A stretch of DNA of 64,000 nt from a bacterium. GTDB lineage: Bacteria; Patescibacteriota; Minisyncoccia; Minisyncoccales; GBS-2. The notes beneath the pieces were generated by a model, which searched no databases, was not told the DNA's origin, and worked only from the letters and a program-made list of their open reading frames with translations. Position numbers and translations under genes: made by a program. Shown here in pieces: positions 1 through 43,641 of this stretch. The first letter of the stretch is position 1, and the number at the start of each line of letters is the position of its first letter. The DNA is taken from contig DAIRUS010000001.1 of the NCBI GenBank assembly GCA_036803205.1, positions 20,290-84,289 of the forward strand, given 5' to 3'.

Positions 1-44
1 AAACTAATGAATTAAGAAAAAAAATCCTTCCAATTAAAGAAAGA

Positions 45-1166: not shown

Positions 1167-2221
1167 AAAAATATTTTTTTACAATTTTCTTAATCATCCT
1201 CTCACTTTTTCCTCTTTTAATTTTTTCCCGGGATTTAGAAGGGAGATACCCGAGAATTGGCGCTTTAACTCTTACCCCTGATGTTCACCCCATCGTTTAT
1301 GGCCAGTATCTTTTTAACTTTGCTCTGGCAGTGATAGGTATTTTTGCCTTCTTCTCTTTAGTTTGGGCAGGTTTTCAATATCTAACTTCTGCCGGAAATG
1401 TTGAGGTCAAAAGAGCGGCAAAAGAGAGAGTGAAAGCTACTTTTTTGACTTTAGCCATCCTTGCTTTCTCTTATTTAATTTTAACCACTTTTAGAAAAGA
1501 GTGGGAAAGAATGGCCTTAATTAGCCCCACTTTAGTAGGAACACCGCCTACTTATCCCACTTATCAATATACTGCTGACCCTTTACTTCATGTTCGCAAT
1601 ACCGCTAAAACAATGAAGGAAATAATAGAAAGTATTAAAGAAGAAAGTAATGATTTTAAAACCTTGCTTGACAATTGTACCTGTGGAAATCTTATTAACA
1701 TTTGTAGTTTTGCTCCAGGTTGTAAAAATGTTGGTTGTGCCGGCGATCCCTGCCCTAATCGCCAAGACATTGAAGAAGAGCAAATAAAACTCAGGTTAAA
1801 ATTAGAAGAGCTTCTTTTTTATCACCGGCTTTTAGTCGATGCTACTACTAAAAAAAATTTGACGGCTGCTTTATGGGGACGTCAGCCAACTCCTCAAATT
1901 GAAAATCAACTCGAAGCTCTTAGGAATTTGGTAGCCAAATTAGAAAACCCTATAAGTAAACTTCGACCCTTAATTCCAGATTATACAAATCTGGCTAATG
2001 AGTGTGAAATTGAAGATCATTGTGAAGGCCAATGCCATACGTTGGCAACAAACAGTATCACCAAATGTTCCCCCGCAACCGCTAATTGCTACTCAAAAAG
2101 TGGTACACCCCTTTGTCCTATGACAAAAGTAAATAATATAAATAGTAATATCAATAATTTGGCTGGGGAAATTGCCAATATCCTCAACGAAATCGAATCT
2201 TTTTCTCTTGGGTTTCAATAA
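1163..2221 (+). CDS. secreted/membrane Cys-rich protein with a VirB2/TrbC-pilin-like module (signal peptide + TM1-SAGN-loop-TM2) and a Cys-rich C-terminal domain
   Basis: N-terminal signal peptide MKKYFFTIFLIILSLFPLLIFS, then hydrophobic helix ...FQYLTSAGN, amphipathic loop VEVKRAAKERVKA, and second hydrophobic helix TFLTLAILAFSYLILTTF. Paralogous to modules in genes 2223-4202 and 4204-5745. The VirB2/TrbC assignment is inferred from architecture only. Confidence 0.55.
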   Translation: MKKYFFTIFLIILSLFPLLIFSRDLEGRYPRIGALTLTPDVHPIVYGQYLFNFALAVIGIFAFFSLVWAGFQYLTSAGNVEVKRAAKERVKATFLTLAILAFSYLILTTFRKEWERMALISPTLVGTPPTYPTYQYTADPLLHVRNTAKTMKEIIESIKEESNDFKTLLDNCTCGNLINICSFAPGCKNVGCAGDPCPNRQDIEEEQIKLRLKLEELLFYHRLLVDATTKKNLTAALWGRQPTPQIENQLEALRNLVAKLENPISKLRPLIPDYTNLANECEIEDHCEGQCHTLATNSITKCSPATANCYSKSGTPLCPMTKVNNINSNINNLAGEIANILNEIESFSLGFQ

Positions 2222-2222
2222 A

Positions 2223-4202
2223 ATGGGGAAGATAAATAAAAAAAAGCTTTCTTTTTTTCTTCTTTTTTTAGTTCCTTGGATAGCTTTGGCTCAGCCCAGC
2301 TTTGAAATTGACTATCCATTGATAACTGGATTTCCCACCCCAACTTTAGGAGGAAAAGTTTCGGCTCAAGATTTGGCTAATTATATCCAATATATTTTCT
2401 ATTTTGCCATTTTAGCTGGTATTATTTTGGCTCTGGTAATTTTAGTTTTAGGGGGTCTTCGCTATCTCTATTCAGCAGGAAATCCCCAGGTTCAATCCCA
2501 AGCCAGAAGCCAAATAACCAATGCTCTTGTTGGCCTTATTTTACTTTTAGTTTCTTATACCCTTCTCGTTACTATTCGACCCGAATTTGGCAAAGTGGTA
2601 CCGGTTCAACTGCGGGAAGCGAAAATAGTAGTTAATACCTTAAGAAGAGTAAGAAGAACTCTACCTTGGCGGGAAATAGTTGAACAGCTTGAACCATCAT
2701 TCGTTCCCCTGGAAGTAACCTATCCGACAGCCGGCGGATTTAGACCCGAGTTTATTCCTTTTACCACCCCGGCAGCTCCCCACCTTTATCCTTTGGAAAA
2801 ATTAGTTGCCCGCTATGGAAGATACCTTTATGATTTTAGTTTTATGGTTGGAGTTATCTTGGCTCTTCTTTTTATAATTATCGGCGGAATAAAACATTTA
2901 ACTGCTGCTGGAAACATTGCTCAGACTGCTGATGCCAGAGACCAAATTTTTTCTTCTCTTTTGGGCTTACTTTTACTCTTAGGTTCTTATCTCATTCTAA
3001 CTTCCTTTCGACCAGAATTTGCCACCATTGACCCGGCAGAATTAGAAGAAACAGAAATAGAAATAGAACCAGGGGTTTATCTTTGTACTCATCCAATGGA
3101 TAATAATATAAACAATGATTTAATGGCCAGGGTTTGTCGCTGTCGGGACTTAAAAACTTTATCTCAAACTTATGGAGGAGGCGAGTTTATAAATCAGTAT
3201 AATAAAGAATGTTTCTTCACAAAAAGACAAAAAAAAGAACTTTCTACCTTTATTTCCCTCAATTGTTTCTTAATTCAAAGTTCAGAAACCCTACCTCCGG
3301 AGTTAATTGGCGAACCGGTTGATATAAAGAAAGTAGAAGAAGAACTAGAAAAATTAAAAGAAAAAAAATTAATTAGCGATGATGAATACAACGAGATTGT
3401 TAATGGATGGAGAGAGTATAATGCGTCTCGATCAGTAGTAGCCTTTACTGCCCTTTATATTAATGGAAATTATGGAGTTATTTTGCACCAAGAAAAAGAT
3501 TTTAAAGGAAGAGGAGATATAATTATGAAACATGACTTCAAAAACGCGCTTCTTCACTTTTTTCCGGGAAACGAAAGTTTTATTAGATATAGCGATGGGA
3601 TTGTTCACAAGCTGAATACGAATTATTTTTATCGCCATGATCCAAAGACCATTAACCTTTCGTCTTTTAAGTCTGTGACTCTTTTTGAAGATAGGGTGGT
3701 AGATTGCGTCTTAAAAACACCGGCGAAAGATTTCTTTGTCGATATTTCAGATTGTCTTGAAATAAAAAATTTTGACGATGTTACATTTTTTTTCTATAAC
3801 GTTCCTGACTTTGGAACTCTGGAAGAAAAAGAGAAAAATCTTGGATATATTGTAATGCAGTGGGCTGAATTTTTCTCTACTACAGGCGGACGCGCAGCAT
3901 TACATACTCTAGCACGTGGTGGCCATGGAGGAAATGTTAACTTATTAACAGATCTGCTCCGAAACCCAATTTATTCTCTCAAACTGCCGGCAGAAGAAAG
4001 ATGGATTGTCGTGGTTGGAGCACATACGTCAAACCAAACAAATGTGCTGGCTCCTTTTTTCTCAAAACTTTATGTTTTAAATAAAAGTGAAAGAAACTTT
4101 GAGGCAACTTATGTCCGAAGTTTCTGTCAAAAAGGTGATCGGGAATATCCCTGTATTAGCCATTTTTTCGCTTATCCAGGGAAAATGGTTAGACAAAAGT
4201 AA
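2223..4202 (+). CDS. secreted Cys-rich protein carrying two tandem copies of the pilin-like module and a large C-terminal domain
   Basis: Signal peptide MGKINKKKLSFFLLFLVPWIALA|QP. Module 1: EIDYP...LRYLYSAGNPQVQSQARSQITNALVGLILLLVSYTLLVTIRPEF. Module 2: EVTYP...IKHLTAAGNIAQTADARDQIFSSLLGLLLLLGSYLILTSFRPEF. C-terminal GNYGVILHQEKDFKG...YPCISHFFAYPG matches the gene 4204-5745 C-terminus. Start taken at MGK, 1 nt after the upstream stop. Confidence 0.6.
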   Translation: MGKINKKKLSFFLLFLVPWIALAQPSFEIDYPLITGFPTPTLGGKVSAQDLANYIQYIFYFAILAGIILALVILVLGGLRYLYSAGNPQVQSQARSQITNALVGLILLLVSYTLLVTIRPEFGKVVPVQLREAKIVVNTLRRVRRTLPWREIVEQLEPSFVPLEVTYPTAGGFRPEFIPFTTPAAPHLYPLEKLVARYGRYLYDFSFMVGVILALLFIIIGGIKHLTAAGNIAQTADARDQIFSSLLGLLLLLGSYLILTSFRPEFATIDPAELEETEIEIEPGVYLCTHPMDNNINNDLMARVCRCRDLKTLSQTYGGGEFINQYNKECFFTKRQKKELSTFISLNCFLIQSSETLPPELIGEPVDIKKVEEELEKLKEKKLISDDEYNEIVNGWREYNASRSVVAFTALYINGNYGVILHQEKDFKGRGDIIMKHDFKNALLHFFPGNESFIRYSDGIVHKLNTNYFYRHDPKTINLSSFKSVTLFEDRVVDCVLKTPAKDFFVDISDCLEIKNFDDVTFFFYNVPDFGTLEEKEKNLGYIVMQWAEFFSTTGGRAALHTLARGGHGGNVNLLTDLLRNPIYSLKLPAEERWIVVVGAHTSNQTNVLAPFFSKLYVLNKSERNFEATYVRSFCQKGDREYPCISHFFAYPGKMVRQK

Positions 4203-4203
4203 A

Positions 4204-5745
4204 ATGAAAAAAATAATTTTAATTTTGTTTTTGATTTTACCCTGGGAAGTTTTTGCCCAAACTTTTCCTTTTGAGGTTACTTATCCGAGACTTGGACCAG
4301 TTACTCTTCCTTCTCCTCAAGTTGTAGTTGAAGACCCAGGTTATTACATCAGATACCTTTACCAGGCAGGAGTAATTGCTGGTGTTGTTCTTGCTCTTTT
4401 TTCTCTTGCTTTCGGTGGTTTTCTTTTTCTTTTTTCAGCCGGAAATGTTAGTCGACAAATAGAATCCAAAGATCGAATCGCTGGTGCTTTTGTCGGCCTT
4501 TTTCTTTTACTTTCTTCTTTTTTAATTTTGAGGACAATTAACCCTGAATTTACAAGATTCCAATTCAGAAGACCCCCATACCCTTTTACCGAAATTGAAG
4601 AAGGTGTCTGGCTTTGTCAGAAGGAAATTAAGGAAACTTACCAAATGAATAATATAGAACATACTTTGACTTTTGAAGCTTATATCGAATCAAGAAGATC
4701 TATAAGAGAGTATTGGTGGCCAAGCCTTGAGATAGAAGAACAAAAAGCCATTCATAATCTTTATTATAATGTCCATAGCAATTGCCATTTAATTTCTATT
4801 AGTCAAGAATTGCCAGAAAATTTTAGAAGAGCCAGACATGTCTATATTGTTGGAAATTATGGAATAGTTTTTCACCGTTTTCCAAACTTCAAAGGTCCCT
4901 ACAAATTAGTGGCGCTTGAGCGAAAGATGTATCTTGATTTGGATAAGAATATAAATCAAATTGAAAGTGGACCTCGACCTCTGTCTTACTTTGTTTTGCG
5001 TAATGAAGAAATTCCCAATTTTTCCGTGACCTTATTTAAAGACTTTAGATTAGATTATCTGGACTCCTTTGCTGTTGACAAGCGGTTATTACCTTTTCAG
5101 GAATATAGGGGAGAGTTCCCACGGCAAGGAACTATCACCTTTTATACTTTCCGAAACTTTCATGAAGATTTGCCTTCCAAATTCCAGAAGCCTGAGAGCA
5201 CTTGCCCTTCTTTCCGAGACCATCAAGGCTTTCCTCGAGAAACTCAAAAATGTTTTAAAACCTATGAGTTTAAAATCGAAAATTTCTTTGTTACCTTTAA
5301 CCAACAGCCCTTTACTGTTAAGATAGGTAATGATTCATTTATAGAAAATTTTTGGGTAGGCACTGTTTCTCTACATTATATTGGCACTATTGATGGTGGA
5401 AAAATTACCAACGGAGTTGAACTGGACAGCTGTTATTCTCTCAAGATTGATACCCCAGGAAAATACTATGAAGGTAAATCTTGGTGGATAGTAATTGTTA
5501 GAGGATATCCTCGGGAAGACTCTTCATCTCTACCTCTACCACCCGTCGACTTAAACATAGATTTGAGGATCTGGGCAATGCAACAACCTCACTTTTGGGG
5601 TGAAGCTTTTGATAAGAGCGACCGAAACCTTGAAGATAATTATGTTTCCTTTTTTTGCGAGGACAAAGCCAGACAAAAAAGATATCCCTGTGTTCACACA
5701 GCAATTGTTTTCCCTGGAAGAATAATTAAGGAAGTAGAAAGATAG
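4204..5745 (+). CDS. secreted Cys-rich protein with one pilin-like module, paralog of 2223-4202
   Basis: Signal peptide MKKIILILFLILPWEVFA|QT. Module: EVTYP...FLFLFSAGNVSRQIESKDRIAGAFVGLFLLLSSFLILRTINPEF, followed by EIEEGVWLC. C-terminal GNYGIVFHRFPNFKG...YPCVHTAIVFPG is paralogous to the previous gene. Start at MKK, 1 nt after the upstream stop. Confidence 0.6.
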   Translation: MKKIILILFLILPWEVFAQTFPFEVTYPRLGPVTLPSPQVVVEDPGYYIRYLYQAGVIAGVVLALFSLAFGGFLFLFSAGNVSRQIESKDRIAGAFVGLFLLLSSFLILRTINPEFTRFQFRRPPYPFTEIEEGVWLCQKEIKETYQMNNIEHTLTFEAYIESRRSIREYWWPSLEIEEQKAIHNLYYNVHSNCHLISISQELPENFRRARHVYIVGNYGIVFHRFPNFKGPYKLVALERKMYLDLDKNINQIESGPRPLSYFVLRNEEIPNFSVTLFKDFRLDYLDSFAVDKRLLPFQEYRGEFPRQGTITFYTFRNFHEDLPSKFQKPESTCPSFRDHQGFPRETQKCFKTYEFKIENFFVTFNQQPFTVKIGNDSFIENFWVGTVSLHYIGTIDGGKITNGVELDSCYSLKIDTPGKYYEGKSWWIVIVRGYPREDSSSLPLPPVDLNIDLRIWAMQQPHFWGEAFDKSDRNLEDNYVSFFCEDKARQKRYPCVHTAIVFPGRIIKEVER

Positions 5746-7604: not shown

Positions 7605-8960
7605 ATGACCAAAGAAGAACTCTGGCAAGCAGTTTTAGCCCAGATTCAACTAACTATTTCTCCGGCTAATTTTGCTACCTGGTTTAAAGACACGGCAATT
7701 GTTTCCCTTCAAGACGGAGTGGCTTTTATCTCTGTTCCAAATTCTTTCGTTAAAGAATGGCTTGAACAAAAATATAACAAAACTATTTTCAAAATTCTTC
7801 ACAGTTTAGATGAAGGAATTAAAGAGATAAAATACGATTTGGGTAAACCCCGACCAAAAATAATTAAAAAAAGTTTTCCCGTCTTGCCAGAAGAAGGTCA
7901 GTTAGAATTTCCCGAATTTAAAGTTGACAAAGAAACAAATCTTAACCCAAGATATACTTTCGATAATTTTATTGTTGGACCGTGTAATGAATTAGCTCAG
8001 GCTGCCGCCTGGGCTGTCTCCCAAAATCCTGGCCAGATTTACAATCCTCTTTTTATTTACGGTGGAGTTGGCTTAGGAAAAACTCATTTGCTCCAAGCAA
8101 TTGGCAATGAAATAGTTAAAAAATTAAATCAAAGAAAAGTTAGATATGTCCAAACAGAAAAATTTATTTCCAATGTCATTTCAGCCATCCGCAACCACCA
8201 AATCGAACAACTTAAGGCACTATATCAACCGATTGACGTTCTTATTATTGATGATATTCAATTTTTAGCCGGAAAAGAAAAAACTCAAGAAGAGTTTTTT
8301 TATATCTTTAATTCTCTCTATGAAAAAAACAAACAAATCGTTCTTTCTTCCGACCGTTCTCCAAAAGCCATTCCAGCTTTAACCGAAAGGCTAAGGTCTC
8401 GGTTTGAAGGAGGAATGATTGCCGATATTACTTTTCCCGATTTTGAAACCAGGATGGCTATTTTAAAAGCAAAGTGTCAAGAAAGAAAAGGTGAATTTTC
8501 CGATGAAATATTAAATTATATTGCCTCAAATATTCAAAGGAATATTAGAAAATTAGAAGGGGCTTTAAACATTTTACTTGCCCACCGAAAACTTCAAGGA
8601 GATTCGCCCAACCTAGAAACAGCCAAGTCATTACTGAAAGACCTCGTCTTATCTCCAGTAAGAGTTATTAATCCAAAAGAAGTCGTCAGGGCAGTGGCTG
8701 ATTTCTATGATTTAAAGGAAAAAGATCTATTTTCTTCCTCTCGAAAAAAAGAAATTGTCAAACCAAGGCAAATAGCTATGTATCTATTAAGGGAAGAATT
8801 AAAAAACTCTTTCCCTTTTATTGGAAGAAAGTTCGGTGGAAAAGACCACACTACCGCCATTCATGCCTATGAAAAAATCTCCAAAGAAATAGAAAAAAAC
8901 GAAAACCTTCGCGAGGAAATTGCCTTAATTAAACAAAGATTTATTAGTGGAGAAATTTAA
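7605..8960 (+). CDS. dnaA: chromosomal replication initiator protein DnaA
   Basis: AAA+ Walker A GGVGLGKTHLLQAIGNE, Walker B LIIDDIQFL, C-terminal DNA-binding domain. 451 aa. Confidence 0.95.
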   Translation: MTKEELWQAVLAQIQLTISPANFATWFKDTAIVSLQDGVAFISVPNSFVKEWLEQKYNKTIFKILHSLDEGIKEIKYDLGKPRPKIIKKSFPVLPEEGQLEFPEFKVDKETNLNPRYTFDNFIVGPCNELAQAAAWAVSQNPGQIYNPLFIYGGVGLGKTHLLQAIGNEIVKKLNQRKVRYVQTEKFISNVISAIRNHQIEQLKALYQPIDVLIIDDIQFLAGKEKTQEEFFYIFNSLYEKNKQIVLSSDRSPKAIPALTERLRSRFEGGMIADITFPDFETRMAILKAKCQERKGEFSDEILNYIASNIQRNIRKLEGALNILLAHRKLQGDSPNLETAKSLLKDLVLSPVRVINPKEVVRAVADFYDLKEKDLFSSSRKKEIVKPRQIAMYLLREELKNSFPFIGRKFGGKDHTTAIHAYEKISKEIEKNENLREEIALIKQRFISGEI

Positions 8961-9108: not shown

Positions 9109-10233
9109 ATGAAATTAACAATTCTAAAAGATGTAATGAAAAAAGGTATAGAGGTTGTCGAAAAAATAACTCAAAAAAATCTTACGCTACCTATTCTTCA
9201 AACAACCATTTTTCAAACAGAAAAAAATTTTTTAACTCTCTCATCTACTAATTTAGAAACAGGAGTTATTTGGTGGGGTTTAGCCAGGATAGAAAAAGAA
9301 GGAAAAATTTGTCTACCAACCAAAGTTTTATCTCAACTTATTAGTTTTGTACCGCAAAAATCTATCTCTTTATTTAAAGAAAACTTATCTCTCTGGGTTG
9401 AATGCGAAAATTATAAAACCGAGATTATCGGATTAGACGCGGAAGAATTTCCAATTATTCCAAAAATTCAAACTGAAAATTCCATTTTGGTTGATACCTC
9501 TCTTTTTTGTCAATCTCTTTCTCAAGTTGTTAAAATTCCTTCTCCTTCTACTGCTCGACCGGAAATTTCCGGAGTTCTTTTGAATTTTCAAGAAAATATA
9601 ATCAAAATTGCCGCCACTGATAGTTTCCGTTTAGCCGAGAAAAAATTGTTTTTACCAAACCCTTTTCCTCAAAAACACTCTTTGATTTTACCCCAGAATT
9701 CAGTTAGAGAAATAATTGGCATTTTTGGAGAGTTGGAAGGAGAAATGCGAATTTATATTTCTCCAAAACAAATATGGTTTGAGTCTCTAATGTCGGAAAT
9801 TTCCCACCCTCAAATTCAGTATACTTCTCGTTTGATTGAAGGGGAATATCCAAATTACGAAGAAATTACTCCTAAAAAATTTGGAACCACTGTTTCTCTC
9901 TCAAAAGAGAAATTATTGAACCAGATTAAAACCGCCAGTCTTTTCAGTGGTAAAAACAATGAAATCATAATGAAAATTGACCCAAAAAATGAAACGATAA
10001 CAATCTTAAGTCAAAGTCCTAATTTAGGAAAATACGAAGGTTCTCTTGCCGGAAAGATTAAAGGAGAAAAAGTAGAAATTGCTTTTAACCACCGTTTTTT
10101 AATAGATGGAATTTTAGAAATAAAAAGTCCGGAATTAACCCTTAATCTAACTAATGAAGAAGGTCCAGCCGTTTTAAGACCAGTTGATCTGGAAGATTAT
10201 TTCTATATTCTAATGCCGATTAAAACTATTTAA
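9109..10233 (+). CDS. dnaN: DNA polymerase III beta sliding clamp
   Basis: 374 aa with three-domain clamp architecture, immediately downstream of dnaA. N-terminus MKLTILKDVMKKGIEVVEKI is typical of DnaN. Confidence 0.85.
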   Translation: MKLTILKDVMKKGIEVVEKITQKNLTLPILQTTIFQTEKNFLTLSSTNLETGVIWWGLARIEKEGKICLPTKVLSQLISFVPQKSISLFKENLSLWVECENYKTEIIGLDAEEFPIIPKIQTENSILVDTSLFCQSLSQVVKIPSPSTARPEISGVLLNFQENIIKIAATDSFRLAEKKLFLPNPFPQKHSLILPQNSVREIIGIFGELEGEMRIYISPKQIWFESLMSEISHPQIQYTSRLIEGEYPNYEEITPKKFGTTVSLSKEKLLNQIKTASLFSGKNNEIIMKIDPKNETITILSQSPNLGKYEGSLAGKIKGEKVEIAFNHRFLIDGILEIKSPELTLNLTNEEGPAVLRPVDLEDYFYILMPIKTI

Positions 10234-30371: not shown

Positions 30372-30800
30372 ATGGAAAAACCTTCAATCCAAGGAGAACC
30401 CCCACTTGAAAAAGGAATGTCAGCTGAAGAACATCCTGAAATTGAAGAATTAAAAAAGAGAATTGAAAAACTGGAAGCGCGTTTAGAAAGAAAAAAAATA
30501 CCCGAGGAAAGAGAAAAGATTATTAAACAGGAAATTAAGGCTTACCTTCAAAGGATTCAAAAAATGCCTTCTTTTGCCGCTCCTCGGACAGCGAGAGATG
30601 AAGCAAAAGAAATAGCAGTTCTTCCCCCCAGCCAACAAGTTGGAGCCTTAATTTCTCTTGTTTTTGAAAAAAGCTTAAAAGAAGCAATCTCGATTGCTAG
30701 GACCCTTAATAATCCAGCGATTTTAGACGAATTTCATGATATTTTAGTTGACCGTTATTATCAAACTCTTGTTGAAAAAGGAATTTTAAAATCTTTATAA
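30372..30800 (+). CDS. hypothetical coiled-coil protein, translationally coupled to the downstream T4CP gene
   Basis: Charged coiled-coil N-terminus. Stop lies 3 nt before the T4CP start. No recognisable motif. Confidence 0.4.
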   Translation: MEKPSIQGEPPLEKGMSAEEHPEIEELKKRIEKLEARLERKKIPEEREKIIKQEIKAYLQRIQKMPSFAAPRTARDEAKEIAVLPPSQQVGALISLVFEKSLKEAISIARTLNNPAILDEFHDILVDRYYQTLVEKGILKSL

Positions 30801-30802
30801 AA

Positions 30803-33265
30803 ATGCCATTTTTTTTCTTGAATTTGATTTTCTTTTTCTTATTTCTTTTTATACTATTTTTTATCATTTACCTCTTTTTAAGGGGTGGGAAAATAAAAGG
30901 TTTTTTTAATCGGAGTATGAACCTGGCTCTTTTTTTGGTCACTCTTCCTCAACGGATTGAAAAAGAAATTTCTTTGCCAGAACATCTCAAGCTAGCCGAA
31001 CAATTCTATGCTTCTTTAGCTGGTCTTCAAGAAAAAAATAAATTTTTAAAATTTTTAATCGGCAATCCGGTCTTAGTTTTCGAAATTGCTGTCCATCGAA
31101 TTGGAGAGGAAATTTATTTTTATGTCGCTTGCCCCCGATCGATTTCTCAGTTAATGGAGAAGCAAATTCTCGGCTTTTGGCCCAAAGCCCAAGTTCAGCC
31201 GGTTTCTGACTATAATATTTTCAATCCGGTTGGTTTTTCGGTTGGGAGCGAGGCTTTTTTGGCAAAGTCAGCTGTTTTACCATTGAAATCTTCAAAAGAT
31301 TTTGGAACCGATCCCCTTTCAGCTATCACTTCGGTTTTTACCAAATTAGCCCGCGAAGGAGAAGGAGCGGCTATTCAAATTTTATTTCGACCGAGTCAAT
31401 CTCAAATTAAGAAAATTAGTCAGAACGTGATTAATCTATTAAAAGGCGGAATGCAACTTGAAGGAGCTTTAAAAAATGCTCAGGCAGCCACCGGTATTGG
31501 CGGTTTTCTTAAAGTCCCAGGTGAAATCTTCTCAGCTAAACCTATTCAAACAACAAAAACCTCTGAGAAAACTTTTTTTCCGCCACCAATCACCGCCGAA
31601 CAACAAGAGATTATATCTACCCTTGATAAAAAATCAGCCCAACCTCTTTTTGATGTTAATCTAAGAATTTTAACCTCTGCCCTCACCGAAATCAGGGCTC
31701 AAGAAATTCTTAGCCAATTGGAGATTTCTTTTGGACAATTCAACAGCCCGGTTTTAAATCAGATTAAATTTAAAAAACTCTCAGGCCGGAGGTTAAAAGA
31801 GCTTTTTTATAATTTTTCTTTTAGAATTTTTAATGAGTCGGCAACAATGCTTCTTTCTTCAGAAGAATTAGCCAATCTTTATCATTTTCCCTCTTCAAGC
31901 TTGCTCACCCCTTACATCAAATGGTTGAAAGGCAGACAGGCTCCTCCGCCCCCAAATCTTCCCCGAGAAGGCATTATTATTGGCAAAAATGTTTTTCGCT
32001 CTGAAGAAAGGTTGGTTCCAATTTTGAGAGACGACCGACGACGTCACTTTTATATCATCGGCCAGACAGGAACGGGAAAATCAGTTTTACTCCAAGAGAT
32101 GATGAGGCAAGATATGAGGGTTGGCGAAGGCGTAGCCTTGATTGATCCCCACGGCGATTTAGCCGAAAGAGTTTTAGGATTGATTCCTTCTTCTCGGATT
32201 GAAGATGTGATCTATTTTGATCCTGGGGATATTGAAAGACCGCTTGGTTTAAATATGCTTGAATACGATATTAAATTTCCCGAATCAAAAATTTTTGTTG
32301 TCAATGAGCTTTTGGAAATTTTTGAAAAACTCTATAATCTCAAAGCCTTAGGTTTTGGGGGGCCGGTTTTCGAGCAATATATGAGAAATGCCCTTTTATT
32401 GGTAATGGAAGATCCCGAATCGGGAAACACTTTAATTGAAGTCCCAAGAGTTTTAGCTGATAAAGATTTTCGGAAATATAAACTTTCGCGCTGCCAAAAT
32501 ATAGTAGTCAAAAATTTCTGGGAGTTAGAAGCAGAAAAAGTCGGCGGAGAAGCGGCTTTAGCCAATATGGTTCCTTACCTCACCAGTAAAATGAATATTT
32601 TTATTGCCAACGATTTAGTCCGACCGATTATTGCTCAACAATCTTCTTCTTTTAATTTCCGAGAAGTAATGGATCAAGGAAAAATTTTAATTATTAACCT
32701 TTCTAAAGGCAAATTGGGTGATATAAATAGTTATCTTTTAGGAATGATTACTGTGGGTAAAATTTTAATTGCTGCTTTTTCTCGGGCCGATATTCCCGAA
32801 GAAAAGAGGCGGGATTTTTATCTTTATATTGATGAATTTCATAATGTGACCACCAGAACGATTATTTCCGCCCTAGCTGAAGCAAGAAAATATCGGCTCA
32901 ATTTAATTCTTTCCCATCAATTCATCGGGCAACTTGACGAAGAAACGAGGAAGGCTATTTTTGGCAACGTTGGTTCAATGTTAACCTTTAGATTAGGACC
33001 TGACGATGCAAAATATTTGATTACTGAGTATGAACCGGTTTTTGATGAAAATGACTTTGTTAACCTCGACAATTATAATGCCGCCCTACGCCTTCTGATT
33101 AATGGTGAAGCTTCCAAACCTTTTAACATTGTTACTTTTCCGCCGAGCAAAAGTAATCCTGAGGTTGCTAAACTTGTAAAAGAATATTCCCGTGCTAAAT
33201 ATGGTCGTGACCGTACCTTAGTAGAGTCAGATCTCTATCAGCGACTTTCAAAAAGTTATTTTTAA
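30803..33265 (+). CDS. type IV secretion coupling protein (TrwB/TraD/VirD4 family ATPase)
   Basis: N-terminal TM helices. Walker A FYIIGQTGTGKSVLLQEMM, then VALIDPHGDL (compare TrwB ...GATGTGKSVLLREL...VIVDPNGDM, recalled from memory). Walker B YLYIDEFHNV (T4CP-type DEF). LILSHQ. Confidence 0.75.
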   Translation: MPFFFLNLIFFFLFLFILFFIIYLFLRGGKIKGFFNRSMNLALFLVTLPQRIEKEISLPEHLKLAEQFYASLAGLQEKNKFLKFLIGNPVLVFEIAVHRIGEEIYFYVACPRSISQLMEKQILGFWPKAQVQPVSDYNIFNPVGFSVGSEAFLAKSAVLPLKSSKDFGTDPLSAITSVFTKLAREGEGAAIQILFRPSQSQIKKISQNVINLLKGGMQLEGALKNAQAATGIGGFLKVPGEIFSAKPIQTTKTSEKTFFPPPITAEQQEIISTLDKKSAQPLFDVNLRILTSALTEIRAQEILSQLEISFGQFNSPVLNQIKFKKLSGRRLKELFYNFSFRIFNESATMLLSSEELANLYHFPSSSLLTPYIKWLKGRQAPPPPNLPREGIIIGKNVFRSEERLVPILRDDRRRHFYIIGQTGTGKSVLLQEMMRQDMRVGEGVALIDPHGDLAERVLGLIPSSRIEDVIYFDPGDIERPLGLNMLEYDIKFPESKIFVVNELLEIFEKLYNLKALGFGGPVFEQYMRNALLLVMEDPESGNTLIEVPRVLADKDFRKYKLSRCQNIVVKNFWELEAEKVGGEAALANMVPYLTSKMNIFIANDLVRPIIAQQSSSFNFREVMDQGKILIINLSKGKLGDINSYLLGMITVGKILIAAFSRADIPEEKRRDFYLYIDEFHNVTTRTIISALAEARKYRLNLILSHQFIGQLDEETRKAIFGNVGSMLTFRLGPDDAKYLITEYEPVFDENDFVNLDNYNAALRLLINGEASKPFNIVTFPPSKSNPEVAKLVKEYSRAKYGRDRTLVESDLYQRLSKSYF

Positions 33266-33421: not shown

Positions 33422-34102
33422 ATGCCTGAGTTTGGATTTCAATTTGAAGGGAAACCTCAACAACCTAAAACGGAAAGAAGAGAAGACAGAGAAGAAAGGG
33501 AAAGAAGAGAAAAAATAGCCCATGTTCAGGAACTTGTTTCACCCACTAGCAAAAGAGACGACCTTTATGAACTGATAACAAGGGAAGTTTACAAAGGAAG
33601 TGACTTGCAAGAAGAGCGTAAAGCCAGATTAAGGGAAATTGGATACGACCCTAATTACTTAGAACAAGTAGGGAAAGATAATATAAGGCGCTGGGAAGAA
33701 TTGATAAATAAAACAAGCTTTGAAGGAGGATTATCTCCACGAGAACAGGAAGAATCCAAAAGGCTTTTTGGTTTATGTTTTAGAGAACAAGAAGGAAAAG
33801 GATTTCGGCATTCTGAATTAACTATCGGAGCTATGACTGAATTTTCAAGACAAATAGGAAAGCTAATGGCGGCAGGATTAGAAGGAGACCCTAAAAAACG
33901 AGAGGAAACATTTTTTGGATCGTCGTCGGTCGAAATTTCGCCCCAAATGGTAGAAAGATTTGTTAAAGAAAGAAACTCAGAAAAGATGGAAGAAGTTGCC
34001 AAAAAGATGAATTCTATTATTGAAAAAATTGAGAGTCCAGATAAGCAAAAACAATATACGGCGATCAGAGGATTTTTATTTCGAGAATCCAAAGAAAAAT
34101 AA
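33422..34102 (+). CDS. hypothetical charged (K/E/R-rich) protein
   Basis: ORF only. Low-complexity N-terminus. No motif recognised. Confidence 0.4.
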   Translation: MPEFGFQFEGKPQQPKTERREDREERERREKIAHVQELVSPTSKRDDLYELITREVYKGSDLQEERKARLREIGYDPNYLEQVGKDNIRRWEELINKTSFEGGLSPREQEESKRLFGLCFREQEGKGFRHSELTIGAMTEFSRQIGKLMAAGLEGDPKKREETFFGSSSVEISPQMVERFVKERNSEKMEEVAKKMNSIIEKIESPDKQKQYTAIRGFLFRESKEK

Positions 34103-34205
34103 GACGTTAAAGTAGAACGAAAATTTGCCTCGTACGTCTAAAAAATAAAAGTAAAAACATTGGAAAGTTTATCGGCCAGAAATAGAAAAAGAAAATAAAA
34201 TTATT

Positions 34206-35006
34206 ATGCCTTTTGAACAAGAAAAATTTGAAAGACCACCGGAAATAAATCCAAAACAAGAAGGTAAAGAAAAAAAAGAAAAGGAGGAAGAAAAATTCAG
34301 AGAATTTTTAGCTCAACAAATTTCTCGTCCAGAAGGTGAGTGGAGTGAAGAATTTAGAAATTATATTAAAAAAAAGGATCGTGAAAAAACCGATTGTGAA
34401 AAAACCGCCGAGATTCTAGAAAGATCTATAGAAGAAGAACAGCAATTAACATTTGAAAGGTATCTTAAGGGACTGGATTTAAGGGAAGAAGATTTAAGGA
34501 GAAAAAGGATATTGGATTTGGGTTGTGGAAAGGGAGAATTTGTAAAAGAATGTTTGGAAAGAAAATTAACTTCTAAGGCTTATGGTTTAGATTTAAAAGT
34601 AGAACCCTCAGACCATTTTATCCAAGGGAACTTTGAAGATAAAGCCTCTTTTTCAAAAATTCCTCAAGAAGAATTCGACTATATTGTCTCTTTTGGCGCC
34701 ATAGAAGCTCCGGCCTCTGAAGAAGAGGAAGGGGTTTTTAATCCAAGAGCAACATTAAAGAATGCTTTAGGTGTACTTAAAGAAAATGGCGAGATTAGAA
34801 TTTATCCTCTTCGTAGAGCCCCTCCTGAAAGTGGATTAAAAGGAATTGAATTTGCCAGAAAGAAATGGATGGAGACATTAGAAACTTTATTTAAAGAAGA
34901 GAACATTAAATATGAACTGAAACCAATTGATATTGGGGTAGATGGAAAAAAACCCGATGTTTGGTTAAAGGAAGTTTTAATAATTAAAAAAGGAAAATCT
35001 CGTTAA
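34206..35006 (+). CDS. hypothetical protein with class I SAM-methyltransferase-like motif I
   Basis: RILDLGCGKGEFVKE... (motif I) ...LDLK (motif II acidic). Highly charged N-terminal 90 aa. Confidence 0.45.
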   Translation: MPFEQEKFERPPEINPKQEGKEKKEKEEEKFREFLAQQISRPEGEWSEEFRNYIKKKDREKTDCEKTAEILERSIEEEQQLTFERYLKGLDLREEDLRRKRILDLGCGKGEFVKECLERKLTSKAYGLDLKVEPSDHFIQGNFEDKASFSKIPQEEFDYIVSFGAIEAPASEEEEGVFNPRATLKNALGVLKENGEIRIYPLRRAPPESGLKGIEFARKKWMETLETLFKEENIKYELKPIDIGVDGKKPDVWLKEVLIIKKGKSR

Positions 35007-35052
35007 TTTCTACGCTTCAAAAAAAGAAAAGCGTTAATAATCAAAAAAAATA

Positions 35053-35907
35053 ATGAAATTTGAAAAATTTGAAAGTTTTAGCCAAAAGATTGAACAAGTC
35101 GGAAGCAGAGAACAGAAAGAAAGAGACATAGAGAGAAAGAGGGGGATAGAAACGTTAAATAGCAAAATTGAAGAAGACGTCGAAAGATTAAGAGAATTTT
35201 TACCACTGACAGCTGAAGGTCGCATTGATCCTAATAGTTTTGAAGAAGTTTATTCTCGAGAGAAAATAGAAGAGGATAAAAAATGGACACAAGCTAAAGA
35301 AGAAGAATATAAAAGTAGAGGAAATCCCGAGGCGAGAAAAAAGGGAGAATTAAGGGAAAAAGTTACCCTATTAATTTTGAATAAATTTTTCGGGCCATTA
35401 ATAACGGTTAGAACGGCAGAGATAGATGATAAGAAGCGACATAGCGATTTTCTTTTTTTTGACCCGGAAAGTGGAAAGGTGATTTGCGGAGCCGATAGTG
35501 GTTCGCCGGAAGGACCACTGCATCAAGAAAAAAAGAAAACGATTTTTGAAAAAAACATAGGGGTTTTGCCAGGAGAAGGAGGGGTGAAAATAGATTACGG
35601 AGCGATTTTAAGGAAAAGAGGCGACAAGATTGAAACCATTCTTACTTCTCTTTCTCGTCTTCCTCTTTTTGGCGTTTACATTTCAGATAATGAAATGGAA
35701 GAATATTTGCAGACTTTAGGTCGTCAAGATTACTCAGAAACCGAAAAAATAGAAAGAAAAATCGCTCGAAATATCACCCAAAATTTTCAAGAACAAGCTG
35801 CAACATTAAAAAAAGAAAAATTGCACCCGAGGGTAGCTGAAGGAATCGAATCTTTTGAAAAAGTTTTGAACTCTATTTCGAAAAATTTAGAAAATAAAGA
35901 ACAATAA
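35053..35907 (+). CDS. hypothetical protein, paralog A of a two-member family
   Basis: KGELREKVTLLILNKFFGPLITVRTAEIDDKKRHSDFLFFDPESGKVICGAD... aligns with the next gene. Confidence 0.45.
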   Translation: MKFEKFESFSQKIEQVGSREQKERDIERKRGIETLNSKIEEDVERLREFLPLTAEGRIDPNSFEEVYSREKIEEDKKWTQAKEEEYKSRGNPEARKKGELREKVTLLILNKFFGPLITVRTAEIDDKKRHSDFLFFDPESGKVICGADSGSPEGPLHQEKKKTIFEKNIGVLPGEGGVKIDYGAILRKRGDKIETILTSLSRLPLFGVYISDNEMEEYLQTLGRQDYSETEKIERKIARNITQNFQEQAATLKKEKLHPRVAEGIESFEKVLNSISKNLENKEQ

Positions 35908-35911
35908 CACT

Positions 35912-36754
35912 ATGCCATTTGAAAGTCTTGAAAAAAGACCTTCTATTTCAGAGAAAAAAGATGAATCTCGCGAAAAGCTTGAAACTATACTCGGAAAACT
36001 GGCTGAAGGGCTAGGCAAATTAGGTTTTCCGATAGATACAGAATGCCGGATTAAACCCGAAGTTTTTTCAAAAATAATTCCATCGGAAGAAATTAAAAGG
36101 GATTTAAAATATGTTGGAGAAATGGAAGAAAAATTTTCGGCCGAAGATAAAAGTAAAGAAAAAAAGGGTGAATTGTTAGAAATGTATGTTACTCTTTTAT
36201 TGAATAAATATTTAAACAAAGAAAAATTTGCCATTGTGAGAACTTCGAGATATGACGATATTAAAAATGGTGCCGATCATCTTTTCCTTGATATTAAAAC
36301 GGGCGAAGTTGTTGGTATTTTTGATGTCGTTTCGGCTGTGGGAGATGAACGTCACAGAGAAAAAACTCAGAATTTTTTTGAAAATAATTTAGGTAAATTA
36401 CTGGGGGGAACCGAAATCAAATATGGGATAGGGATAAAAAAAGAAGATGGCAAAATTTTATTTGAACCTCGCTCTTATACAAAAACGCCCCTTCCTCTTT
36501 TTTGTCTTGCTCTTAGCCCAGAAGAACTAGAAACGGCTATTAAAAAATTTAATTCTCCAGAAAAAGAGGATAGGGAGTATGAAAGAAAAATGGCGCTTTA
36601 TTTTTTACTTTGCCTTCAATATCAATGCGAACTTTTAGAGAAAAAAGAATTAGTTTTAAAACCAACGCTTTACGAGAAAGTCAAGCATTTAAAAGAGAAC
36701 CTAGATCCTATCGTGAAAAAACATCAAGAAGACCTCAGGTTAAGGAATTTTTAA
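35912..36754 (+). CDS. hypothetical protein, paralog B
   Basis: KGELLEMYVTLLLNKYLNKEKFAIVRTSRYDDIKNGADHLFLDIKTGEVVGIFD... aligns with the previous gene. Only 4 nt separate the two. Confidence 0.45.
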   Translation: MPFESLEKRPSISEKKDESREKLETILGKLAEGLGKLGFPIDTECRIKPEVFSKIIPSEEIKRDLKYVGEMEEKFSAEDKSKEKKGELLEMYVTLLLNKYLNKEKFAIVRTSRYDDIKNGADHLFLDIKTGEVVGIFDVVSAVGDERHREKTQNFFENNLGKLLGGTEIKYGIGIKKEDGKILFEPRSYTKTPLPLFCLALSPEELETAIKKFNSPEKEDREYERKMALYFLLCLQYQCELLEKKELVLKPTLYEKVKHLKENLDPIVKKHQEDLRLRNF

Positions 36755-41631: not shown

Positions 41632-42063
41632 ATGGAGAAATATGAAATTTTAGAACATAGGGCAGATCTAAAAATCAGGATTTTTGGTAAAACCAAAAAA
41701 GAATTATTTCAGAATGCCCTTTTAGGAATGAGTGAAAGTATGAAGGCCGAAATTGAAAGCCCGGCAGAAAAAGTAAAAAGAAAAGTTAGAATAGAATCGT
41801 TTGATTTGCCTTCTTTATTGGTTGATTTTTTAAGCGAGATTCTTTATTTGAGTCAGGTTAATAAAGAGGTCTATTTTGAGGTGAAGTTTAAAAAATTTTT
41901 TGTTCCGTTAACAAGCTCAAGACAGGCTGAAATAGAGTGTGAACTAATCGGTCAAAAAGTAGAGAGATTCGGCAAAGACATAAAGGCGGTGACTTATCAC
42001 GATTTGGACATTCGTCAGAGAAAAAATAAAACCTGGCAGGCAACAGTGCTTTTTGATATATAA
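41632..42063 (+). CDS. archease (RtcB activator)
   Basis: YEILEHRADLKIRIFGKTKKELFQNALLGM matches the archease N-terminus (consensus recalled: [30 protein letters not shown]). 143 aa, upstream of rtcB. Confidence 0.75.
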   Translation: MEKYEILEHRADLKIRIFGKTKKELFQNALLGMSESMKAEIESPAEKVKRKVRIESFDLPSLLVDFLSEILYLSQVNKEVYFEVKFKKFFVPLTSSRQAEIECELIGQKVERFGKDIKAVTYHDLDIRQRKNKTWQATVLFDI

Positions 42064-42192
42064 GTTGGTTTTTAGGTTTAATTTTTTCAATCTCTATTGA
42101 TTTGACTTTCCCACAGGAATACCACAAGATTTTTTAATTGGGCTAGATAAGAAAGCCTTTTCTTTTTAGAAAACTTAAGCTAAAATGGGAAT

Positions 42193-43641
42193 ATGATTTC
42201 AAAAAAAGATTTTAGAAAAATTTCAGAGTTTCTTTGGGAAATTCCAAAAACTTTTAGGGCAAATATGCGAGTTCCGGCAAGAATTTATGTTTCTGAAAAG
42301 ATGTTAGAAGAAGTATTTCGAGATCAATCGATTCCTCAATTAATCAATGGCACCACCCTTCCGGGAATAGTAAAATATGGCATTGCCATGCCTGACTGCC
42401 ATGAAGGATATAGTGTGCCTATCGGATTTGTTGGGGCATTAAGAGTTTCTGACGGAATTATTTCTCCTGGAGCAGCAGGGTTTGATTTGAATTGTGGAAT
42501 GAAACTTTTAAAATCGGAATTATCAGAAAAAGATATAAAGCCATATTTAGAGAAGCTGGCAACAGAAATTCAGAAAGAAGTACCTTCGGGACTTGGCCGA
42601 GGAGGACAAATAAAACTTTCTTTTGAGGAGATTAATAAAATTTTAGAGGGCGGAGCTCAAAAGATGGTCCAACAAGGTTTTGGCGAGAAAGAAGATATAG
42701 AAAATTGTGAATCTCATGGAAGATTAAACTGGGCCGACGCCTCAACTGTTTCTTCGCGAGCTAAAAATCGAGGAAGGGACCAGTTGGGAACCTTGGGAAG
42801 CGGAAATCATTTCCTCGAAATTCAAAAGGTGGCTGAGGTTTTTGATGAGAAAACAGCCGAAGCTTTTGGATTGTTTAAAGACCAAATTGTAACGATGATT
42901 CATACCGGTTCGCGCGGGCTCGGACATCAGGTTTGTACTGATTATTTAAGGGAATTTATTCCGGTAATGGAAAAAAAGTATAAAATCAATGTTCCTGATA
43001 GAGAATTTGCCTGTGTACCATTCAATTCGCCAGAGGGTCGAAGGTATTTTTCAGCTATGGCCTCGGCCGCCAATTATGCCTGGGCTAATCGCCAAATGAT
43101 CGCCCACTTTATTAGAAAAGCCTGGAAGTCAGTTTTGGGTGAGAAAGACAGTTATTTGGTGGCTCTTTATGATGTTGCTCACAATATTATTAAAAAGGAA
43201 AAATATATTATTGATGGTAAAGAAATTGAAGTGATTGTTCATCGTAAAGGATCCACCCGGGCTTTTCCTCCGGGCCACCCGGAAATCCCTGAAAGATATC
43301 GAAATGTCGGTCAACCAGTTTTAATTCCCGGCTCAATGGGAACTGCCTCTTACGTTCTAGTTGGAACCAGAGAAGGAGAGGAAGCTTTTTTCTCGACTTG
43401 TCATGGCGGAGGTCGGACAATGTCTCGACACGAAGCCATGAGACGAGTTTCTGGAAAAGAAGTAGTAAAAAGTTTAGAATCAAAAGGAATTATTGTTAAG
43501 TGCCGGTCTTTGAGGGGTATTGCCGAAGAGGCGCCCCTAGCATATAAAAACATTGATGAGGTAGTAGAGATAGTCCATAATGCTGGTCTATCAAAAAAAG
43601 TAGCAAAATTGATGCCATTGGCAGTAATTAAGGGAGAATAA
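42193..43641 (+). CDS. rtcB: RNA-splicing ligase RtcB
   Basis: RtcB motifs DLNCGM, GSGNHF, HRKGSTRA, plus C-terminal His/Cys metal ligands. 482 aa. Confidence 0.85.
   Translation: MISKKDFRKISEFLWEIPKTFRANMRVPARIYVSEKMLEEVFRDQSIPQLINGTTLPGIVKYGIAMPDCHEGYSVPIGFVGALRVSDGIISPGAAGFDLNCGMKLLKSELSEKDIKPYLEKLATEIQKEVPSGLGRGGQIKLSFEEINKILEGGAQKMVQQGFGEKEDIENCESHGRLNWADASTVSSRAKNRGRDQLGTLGSGNHFLEIQKVAEVFDEKTAEAFGLFKDQIVTMIHTGSRGLGHQVCTDYLREFIPVMEKKYKINVPDREFACVPFNSPEGRRYFSAMASAANYAWANRQMIAHFIRKAWKSVLGEKDSYLVALYDVAHNIIKKEKYIIDGKEIEVIVHRKGSTRAFPPGHPEIPERYRNVGQPVLIPGSMGTASYVLVGTREGEEAFFSTCHGGGRTMSRHEAMRRVSGKEVVKSLESKGIIVKCRSLRGIAEEAPLAYKNIDEVVEIVHNAGLSKKVAKLMPLAVIKGE

Follow-up and report, generated by a model that had tools for sequence, protein, structure and literature searches.

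A short N-terminal leader shared by variable proteins that flank an orphan T4CP-like ATPase in Patescibacteria

Four open reading frames (ORFs) at positions 33422-36754 of the window, i.e., the 64,000-nucleotide (nt) stretch of contig DAIRUS010000001.1 (GenBank assembly GCA_036803205.1) that was analyzed here, lie downstream of a gene for an ATPase resembling type IV coupling proteins (T4CPs). All four start with a short leader, which was also found on many same-strand genes flanking the corresponding ATPase genes of other genomes and was enriched there relative to other genes. It is proposed, at somewhat less than an even chance, that the leader serves to bring a variable set of cargo proteins or partners to this orphan ATPase. 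The window is part of the chromosome of an uncultured Patescibacteria (CPR) bacterium, and its closest relatives were metagenome-assembled genomes (MAGs) labelled Nealsonbacteria, Paceibacterota or Patescibacteria.

The original prediction had described four uncharacterized, highly charged ORFs, co-directional with a T4CP gene, as possible substrates or effectors of a type IV secretion system (T4SS) or as DNA-processing partners. Their positions and orientation were confirmed, and the same four genes were present in public gene calls for four further assemblies of the same strain. The following genes are considered, with sm142, MT and FAM as working names (as is "leader"); L-numbers denote the related loci that were compared.

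30372-30800, + strand: sm142, coiled-coil protein of 142 amino acids (aa), constant partner 5' of the T4CP-like gene, with a 2-nt gap
30803-33265, + strand: T4CP-like ATPase, 820 aa, with an N-terminal transmembrane (TM) segment, DUF8128 and a TrwB/VirD4-like P-loop NTPase domain
33422-34102, + strand: ORF 1, orphan acidic protein of 226 aa, leader variant followed by an R/E-rich linker
34206-35006, + strand: ORF 2 (MT), 266 aa, leader, K/E linker, conserved pre-domain and class I S-adenosylmethionine (SAM) domain
35053-35907, + strand: ORF 3 (FAM paralog A), 284 aa, leader, predicted helical N-terminal region and alpha/beta core
35912-36754, + strand: ORF 4 (FAM paralog B), 280 aa, leader and conserved core

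The N-terminal leader and its link to the ATPase

In each of the four window ORFs, the leader is followed by a K/E/R-rich stretch. ORF 1 carries the variant MPEFGFQFEGKPQQP (33422-33466; start also given as MPEFGFQFEGKP), which begins MPEFGFQFE, and MT carries MPFEQEKFERPPE (34206-34244; start also given as MPFEQEKFERPP). The leaders of ORF 3 and ORF 4 are MKFEKFESF (35053-35079) and MPFESLEKRP (35912-35941), respectively. Among the ORFs of at least 100 aa in the 64-kb window, M-x-F-E at the first start codon was observed only for MT and the two FAM paralogs. From 41 distinct M-x-F-E N-termini, the consensus M-[PS]-F-E-[QKSG]-[PF]-[EK]-F-E-x-P-P was derived, approximately M-P-F-E-x-P-K-F-E-x-P-P. 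The E/K-rich segment after the leader had a median of 46% charged residues and a net charge of -2, as compared to 32% and +1 for all N-termini.

In other genomes, leader proteins flanked sm142 and the ATPase gene at various offsets, e.g., at -1, +1, +3 and +4 in L145, at +1, +2 and +3 in L127 and in L007, and at -2 and +1 in L067, with further examples in L009, L010, L016 and L104. These proteins shared no homology with each other or with the window ORFs, and none had a Pfam domain. When loci were chosen by T4CP similarity alone, 'FE' was present within the first 14 aa of 10 of the 45 same-strand genes located within four genes of the ATPase, versus 2 of 79 others (p=7e-4); two further positives lay directly 5' of sm142 in L011. 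For the non-FAM genes of all loci, the counts were 12/76 near the ATPase and 28/832 elsewhere (p=4e-5), and many of these 28 distant positives were clustered leader proteins beside FAM on contigs that stopped short of where an ATPase gene might have been seen (L104, L100). Within FAM, presence of the leader followed adjacency to the ATPase (13/18 versus 11/118, p=3e-8; by locus, 10/36 versus 2/66).

The leaders of one genome were more alike than the leaders of orthologs elsewhere (L145, genes +3 and +4; L104; L100). This likeness was found at the protein level. Shared leader DNA or a shared ribosome-binding site was rejected as the cause of the common N-terminus, because the codons differed and the upstream DNA was unrelated.

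For a prospective test, four FAM representatives (P0109, P0048, P0051 and P0032) were picked solely for a strong leader. Both representatives with informative flanks adjoined a T4CP-like gene (L154, L152/L153), and all four had a neighboring, non-homologous leader protein. On the 10.8-kb contig of P0032, a 137-aa gene and a gene for a DUF8128 ATPase, 41% identical to that of the window, were followed by five genes, three of which carried leaders (MPKNPESFEPTEKE, MTQNPKEFEPKVRE and, on FAM, MPFESFERSPID). In the case of P0051, the C-terminus of the ATPase (76% identical) was encoded 9 nt before FAM, and the gene after FAM started with MPEQFKFEDPEE. P0109 and P0048 each had an adjacent non-homologous leader protein on contigs too short to reach the ATPase. 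The leader-less FAM members P0133 and P0153, which have long flanks, had no ATPase nearby. No description of FAM, of the leader or of its association with the ATPase was found in the searchable literature, and a search for a Patescibacteria effector signal gave nothing relevant.

Constant core, variable flanks and the T4SS

Genes for sm142 and the ATPase occurred together in 14 of 14 related MAG loci, all of which had been found through the ATPase, and sm142 lay directly 5' of the ATPase gene in almost every related locus. The pair usually followed fpg-holA-rpsT, and the subsequent genes differed by genome. Between the T4CP-like gene and uvrB, the window contains ORF 1, MT and two FAM genes. 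The same interval holds FAM and genes for proteins of 230 and 282 aa in L007, genes for 428, 501, 708 and 118 aa followed by FAM in L104, a single 254-aa gene in L013, and genes for 574 and 70 aa in L014. FAM was located directly 3' of the ATPase gene in L007, L012 and L017 and directly 5' of sm142 in L016; among the 14 MAG loci, MT was found once (L015) and ORF 1 never. In the window, the intergenic gaps from the ATPase gene onward through ORFs 1-4 are 156, 103, 46 and 4 nt, no terminator-like site was detected on the + strand between the ATPase gene and ORFs 1-4, and ORF 4 overlaps the convergent uvrB by 20 nt.

A degenerate DNA pattern describing the FAM core was run against metagenome contigs and gave an independent sample of 120 loci, virtually all of them genuine FAM genes. 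Among genes with enough flank, FAM was directly 3' of the ATPase in 5 of 89 and directly 5' of the sm142-ATPase pair in 8 of 76. FAM genes adjoining the ATPase were always on the same strand, often with gaps of 3-20 nt, and represented 8 of 27 subclusters (<=40% identity) in two gene orders. The commonest FAM neighbors were the ATPase, sm142 and IleRS, the remainder being assorted housekeeping genes. About 85% of the sampled FAM loci were in unrelated housekeeping contexts (IleRS, thioredoxin, HisRS, RecO), mostly without a leader. FAM is linked to the ATPase far more often than expected by chance, but this applies to a minority of FAM. Synteny, which had been named as a means to check the proposed link with the T4CP-like gene, upheld it for these ATPase-adjacent FAM members and for neither the bulk of FAM nor the orphan ORF 1.

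The junction between sm142 and the T4CP-like gene takes insertions: a 231-aa protein with small genes of 89 and 94 aa in L011 (8678-9932), a 397-aa leader protein in L145 (6636-7829), a 223-aa protein in L013 (9317-9988) and an 89-aa protein in L016 (4359-4628). By eye, the 89- and 94-aa genes of L011 resemble a putative HicA/HicB-type toxin-antitoxin pair. In several genomes, small conserved genes (96-118 aa, two groups) directly followed leader proteins:

Group 1: L009 13208-13498; L012 11318-11629
Group 2: L104 7094-7450; L100 1569-1925; L149 3243-3581

A 70-aa gene in L014 and an 87-aa gene in L067 occupied the same position, and no small gene followed any of ORFs 1-4 in the window. These small proteins could be chaperones, adaptors or immunity proteins.

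The ATPase combines a predicted membrane anchor with a TrwB-like P-loop domain, as do VirD4/TrwB coupling proteins. Its N-terminus is hydrophobic (maximal 19-residue hydropathy of 3.26; mean of 2.06 for the first 30 residues), residues 40-400 correspond to PF26449 (DUF8128) in precomputed annotation, and a Walker A motif (GQTGTGKS) and a Walker B-like motif (YLYIDEFH) are present in the translation. Among Pfam families, TrwB_AAD_bind matched with 42.1 bits (cut-off 20.5) and DUF87 with 27.2 bits, while T4SS-DNA_transf, with 20.0 bits, fell just short of its cut-off of 20.1. The best relative in the PDB was TrwB (E=9.5e-10). The other hallmarks of a T4CP, i.e., a full-length model match and association with a T4SS or a relaxase, were lacking: scores with the TraD/VirD4 models of NCBIfam (18-34 bits) were far under the cut-offs (250-650), and a relaxase was not detected. 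The label T4CP holds with respect to the TM segment and the TrwB-like P-loop, and is to be qualified: the ATPase is of DUF8128 type and an orphan, its gene being some 25 kb away from the T4SS. DUF8128 was not mentioned in the searchable literature. The partner sm142 matched no Pfam family, and many of its orthologs have a leader-like N-terminus (MPEKxFQPEK).

A T4SS cluster with PrgI, TraC-like, VirB4-like and pilin-like genes is located on the same contig, about 25 kb from the ATPase gene. Its tail lies inside the window (1-5745, +), with T4SS_pilin-like proteins of 352 and 662 aa and a 506-aa protein, and the genes for PrgI and for the TraC-like and VirB4-like proteins are found shortly before its first position (contig k141_94755, L148 4875-14592). 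The cluster abuts rnpA/yidC, dnaA (7605-8960) and dnaN (9109-10233), i.e., the replication origin region. PMC12102498 counts 5,713 VirD4-like homologs across 2,918 genomes of Patescibacteria, places only 148 close to virB4 and leaves the role of the homologs open. The window ATPase is like these homologs, its gene being distant from virB4 and its genome having an MPF-FATA-like T4SS; partner genes, a neighboring family or a signal do not figure in the passages of the paper that were consulted.

Outside Patescibacteria, full-length homologs of the ATPase were found in 54 phage records, mostly of Bacillus phages (20-25% identity, 80-90% coverage), including phage G gp156, CP-51 gp91 and Shanette (e.g., JN638751.1 90955-93180; KF554508.2 67376-70111). 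They are annotated as hypothetical or as 'DNA helicase or translocase', and all neighbors of the CP-51 homolog are hypothetical. The ATPase also matched phrog_5156 end to end (E=4e-75). A mobile-element or viral origin of the region was rejected, IMG/VR containing neither a close relative of the T4CP-like protein nor a match to the FAM pattern; the phage collection likewise contained no FAM match.

The four proteins downstream of the ATPase

ORFs 1-4 contain 38-42% K/R/E/D and have isoelectric points (pI) of 5.4-6.5, as compared to 9-10 for the neighbors fpg, holA, uvrB and Mur. Since their highest 19-residue hydropathy was at most 1.3, they are taken to be without signal peptide or TM segment, and the charged, signal-less character noted earlier was confirmed. 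They had also been called soluble and of low complexity. The former agrees with the absence of hydrophobic segments; low complexity is confined to the first 20-35 residues, and the body of FAM is predicted to be well folded. In scans with Pfam, NCBIfam, PHROGs and PADLOC profiles, MT alone was recognized and no relaxase family matched any of the four, in line with the reported absence of an HUH relaxase motif. ORFs 1, 3 and 4 had no match to any Pfam or NCBIfam family. Recruiting domains (BID, XVIPCD, relaxase translocation signals) were not found in ORFs 1-4 with Pfam and NCBIfam. The C-terminal positive charge that had been suggested as a translocation signal was rejected: net charges of the last 25 residues were +3, +3, -1 and +3, close to those of housekeeping neighbors (fpg +5, uvrB +2; T4CP-like protein +3). 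The shared element is N-terminal instead.

For ORF 1, a word-indexed search of a collection of 5.8 billion clusters returned ORF 1 alone, and no relative was found in Pfam, NCBIfam or PDB. Homology to the N-terminus of MT or to other T4CP neighbors was considered and rejected, as no likeness to any T4CP neighbor in related genomes was detectable. Two antisense ORFs, at 33655-34092 (-, 145 aa) and 35887-36234 (-, 115 aa), overlap ORF 1 and ORF 4. With their Phe/Ser/Leu-rich translations they look like shadow ORFs rather than genes, arising because the coding sequence is rich in GAA and AAA.

Judged by its sequence, ORF 2 is a class I SAM-dependent methyltransferase. Methyltransf_23 (39.6 bits) and Methyltransf_31 (39.7 bits; cut-off 27 for both), Methyltransf_11 (26.4 bits, cut-off 21.2) and FtsJ (28.4 bits, cut-off 24.1) all passed the Pfam gathering cut-offs. 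The SAM domain spans about 34476-34802. The motif I noted earlier, LDLGCGKGEF, corresponds to residues 103-112, and in AYGLDL (residues 125-130) an acidic residue ends strand 2, as is typical of class I SAM methyltransferases. The 90-aa charged N-terminus in front of the SAM domain is real, because the Pfam match begins near residue 91-100. Unlike known members of the class, MT has this leader-bearing extension and fits no equivalog-level family, every NCBIfam equivalog match being far under its cut-off. The (D/N/S)PP(Y/F/W) catalytic motif of DNA N6A/N4C methyltransferases is absent from the 266-aa translation, and no DNA methyltransferase family was among the Pfam and NCBIfam matches. A homolog with 38% identity and its own leader MDLERPNFNTEP is encoded in L015, 3 kb 5' of the T4CP-like gene; the similarity includes the conserved pre-domain (residues 35-95) and not the first 34 residues. 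In assembly ERZ27245459, with a single mismatch and a single gap relative to the window across a 6.5-kb region, the MT gene (L001 9155-9916) is called with 253 aa instead of 266.

ORFs 3 and 4, which had been described as paralogs, are 32% identical across 262 aa (E=1e-27) and belong, as far as sequence comparison goes, to one large uncharacterized family, FAM. Homolog searches based on word indexing found little beyond the query sequences, and the family emerged through an exhaustive HMMER search with both paralogs. Clusters at 50% identity whose representatives matched with E<=1e-3 numbered at least 785, and those with E<=1e-10 numbered 556. The representatives are of similar size, nearly all having 250-300 aa. 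The few members with named sources are Patescibacteria 'hypothetical proteins', so that the restriction of FAM to Patescibacteria is read from few records. The predicted rapid duplication was also observed elsewhere, with tandem FAM copies in L017 (12362-14376), L025 (326-4331, three copies) and L131. One of the L025 copies (P0077) has 636 aa, with a 370-aa N-terminal extension.

In an alignment of 125 FAM sequences (numbering of ORF 3), E102, D125, D126 and D148 were invariant. R57, D75, R120, D132, G141, K160, G177, Y182, P204, F206 and Q248 were conserved in at least 90% of the sequences, and G98, E99, K111, S122, C145, N168 and K181 in 82-90%. The core consensus reads GExLExLKTAIFxKFL..FIVVRxSxYDDxxNxVDNxIxDKxTGxxVCAFDEV. 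The core of ORF 3 lies at about 35326-35682 and contains the four invariant residues; that of ORF 4 lies at about 36149-36511, with E90, R110, D115, D116, D122, D138 and K151. An AlphaFold2 model based on the same alignment was confident (predicted local distance difference test, pLDDT, of 94.2; predicted template modeling score of 0.90). In this model, an alpha-beta-(alpha)-beta-beta-alpha-beta-beta-beta core is framed by long helices from both ends of the protein. Residues 1-20, i.e., the leader, are the sole low-confidence part of the model (pLDDT 50-69).

Structure prediction, a check proposed earlier, thus gave a confident model and no significant Foldseek match that would name a family: against PDB and BFVD nothing was found at E<=0.001, the best hit having E=0.2. 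No FAM member had a convincing Pfam match, and sequence and profile searches of PDB, whether started from single proteins, from the alignment of 125 sequences or from an alignment restricted to the core, yielded coiled-coil or designed-protein noise alone. Hints of a PD-(D/E)xK nuclease recurred below threshold, in Foldseek (BstEII, 3ijm, EcoRI, BpuSI), Pfam (HamA, DUF6602) and PADLOC (PD_DExK, Cas4, NucC), none being significant (best profile E of about 0.008, in 2 of 125 members). In the model, FAM resembles this superfamily in the order alpha-beta-(alpha)-beta-beta-alpha-beta, with a Glu in the first helix (E102), D132 starting the second core strand and the acidic pair D148-E149 in the third. 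These residues, invariant or nearly so, fit loosely and by element order alone. In contrast to the superfamily, the canonical Lys at +2 is missing (D-E-V), K160 is conserved in the following helix, and FAM has an additional invariant pair D125-D126 as well as extensive helical regions at both termini. FAM is probably a metal-dependent, possibly PD-(D/E)xK-like, putative enzyme. Interpretations of the FAM motifs as kinase-like or ADP-ribosyltransferase-like were dropped on inspection by eye, because neither the apparently helical N-terminal half nor the spacing of the motifs agrees with them. With its size, its confident model and no detectable structural relative, FAM is a candidate new enzyme family of this radiation.

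Recruitment to the ATPase and rival readings

That ORFs 1-4 share their leader with unrelated neighbors of T4CP-like genes is as would be expected of a set of substrates or partners. The region would then be the variable arm of a conserved module. Its core would consist of the coiled-coil protein sm142 and the membrane-anchored, hexameric-type ATPase, surrounded by changing soluble acidic proteins, here an orphan, a SAM methyltransferase and two FAM copies. The leader, which has two Phe in an acidic, proline-flanked setting and precedes the disordered E/K-rich linker, could be a recognition peptide by which proteins without common ancestry reach the ATPase or sm142. Such clients may then be passed on by the ATPase and translocated, with the T4SS 25 kb away as the most plausible route. 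Much of bacterial diversity belongs to Patescibacteria, which live attached to hosts, and the host cell that these epibionts rely on might be the target. The earlier suggestion of T4SS substrates or partners is thus supported by the FAM-T4CP linkage, the MT homolog near the T4CP-like gene in L015 and the shared leader, and not by the majority of FAM, which lies elsewhere.

The module would work most like T4CP-mediated substrate recruitment, and its layout resembles polymorphic effector systems; by analogy, it is placed near both and within neither. In known cases, DotL-DotM of Legionella recognizes a Glu-rich 'E-block', and Xanthomonas XVIPCD effectors bind VirD4. The window is comparable in its membrane-anchored TrwB-like P-loop ATPase, its unrelated soluble proteins with a short element and an acidic Glu-rich tract, the small accessory protein beside the ATPase and the T4SS in the genome. 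It differs in the position of the element, which occupies the very N-terminus and not a C-terminal or internal site, and in an ATPase that contains DUF8128, lies apart from the T4SS, lacks a relaxase and has full-length homologs in Bacillus phages, translocation by it being a supposition here. With LXG and other type VII secretion system (T7SS) effectors, the window shares a constant N-terminal element with variable C-terminal domains, clustering near an ATPase of the FtsK/HerA superfamily, rapid turnover and frequent small 3' genes. Unlike in LXG/T7SS, the leader comprises about 12 residues plus a disordered linker and not a folded domain of about 200 aa; a T7SS and known effector, toxin or immunity domains were not found.

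In a more far-reaching version, which is doubtful although conceivable, this 'FE-box' leader would be a new secretion or recruitment signal that defines the substrates of widespread orphan DUF8128 ATPases of Patescibacteria, i.e., an unrecognized effector-delivery pathway with FAM as new-fold cargo. The leader offers a testable handle: it predicts which dark-matter proteins would be clients of the ATPase and permits genome-wide client prediction by a simple profile. According to PMC12102498, thousands of orphan T4CP homologs in Patescibacteria have no assigned role, and a leader tag would bear on these.

Several points weigh against recruitment for export. Known T4SS signals (VirB/D4, Dot/Icm) are mostly C-terminal or internal. 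The ATPase gene is 25 kb from the T4SS cluster, and its family, with full-length homologs in phages of Bacillus, need not serve T4SS-type secretion. Binding of the leader to the ATPase and export of its bearers are steps that we infer. The leader patterns were simple and were defined after the sequences had been inspected, though they were then applied to other loci; 79 of 97 FAM clusters were uninformative for adjacency, metagenomic flanks being mostly short, and related genomes are not independent samples. The conserved neighbors are DNA-metabolism genes (fpg, holA, uvrB, recO), which fits a cytoplasmic DNA-related role too. In Ca. S. epibionticum, according to PMC12102498, a t4cp homolog was non-essential for epibiotic growth, for which other T4SS genes were essential.

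In another reading, which is unlikely but to be taken seriously, the leader docks a nuclease-like FAM, MT and other proteins on a DNA translocase for uptake, repair or segregation, without export. T4CPs are DNA motors related to FtsK/HerA, and TrwB is the best PDB relative of the ATPase. The module is preceded by fpg-holA-rpsT and followed by uvrB, recO, XerC-like integrase or PDDEXK_1 genes, and the nuclease hints for FAM recurred. The T4SS of Patescibacteria may have been repurposed, DNA acquisition included, according to PMC12102498. However, the nuclease assignment was never significant, and MT lacks a DNA methyltransferase motif and matches only generic families of small-molecule, RNA or protein methyltransferases. 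Moreover, the flanks are hypervariable and rich in orphans though the T4CP-like proteins are 60-72% identical, which would be unusual for a dedicated complex.

It is quite improbable that the genes have no functional link to the ATPase and are lineage-specific genes kept by inherited order, the leader being a habit of the lineage, e.g., for expression or stability of acidic proteins. The housekeeping contexts of most FAM genes, the lack of relatives of ORF 1, the non-independence of the genomes and two leader-like FAM members without a T4CP-like gene within 4 kb on either side would agree with this. Opposed to it are the enrichment in loci that were chosen independently of FAM and the two gene orders across eight divergent subclusters. 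Likewise, the leader was rare in other genes of the same genomes, charged proteins included (2/79, 28/832), its likeness was not at the nucleotide level, and, of the FAM representatives picked by leader, both that had informative flanks adjoined the ATPase.

A polymorphic toxin/immunity island, which is recruitment to the ATPase with a specific claim of toxicity, is the least probable: leader toxins with interchangeable C-terminal domains would act against competitors or the host, with 70-118-aa immunity genes and export coupled by the ATPase, in analogy to LXG/T7SS, Rhs and contact-dependent inhibition (CDI) systems, and the constant short N-terminal element, the small genes recurring after leader proteins (L009/L012; L104/L100/L149), the tandem duplication and the rapid turnover would fit, but in the window none of ORFs 1-4 is followed by a small gene, domains of known toxins or immunity proteins were not detected, and the wide occurrence of FAM as a single leader-less copy among housekeeping genes would be atypical of a toxin.

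Elsewhere in the window, at 41632-43641, a pair of genes for archease and the RNA ligase RtcB is followed by NIF3-like and DUF763 genes, unrelated to ORFs 1-4.

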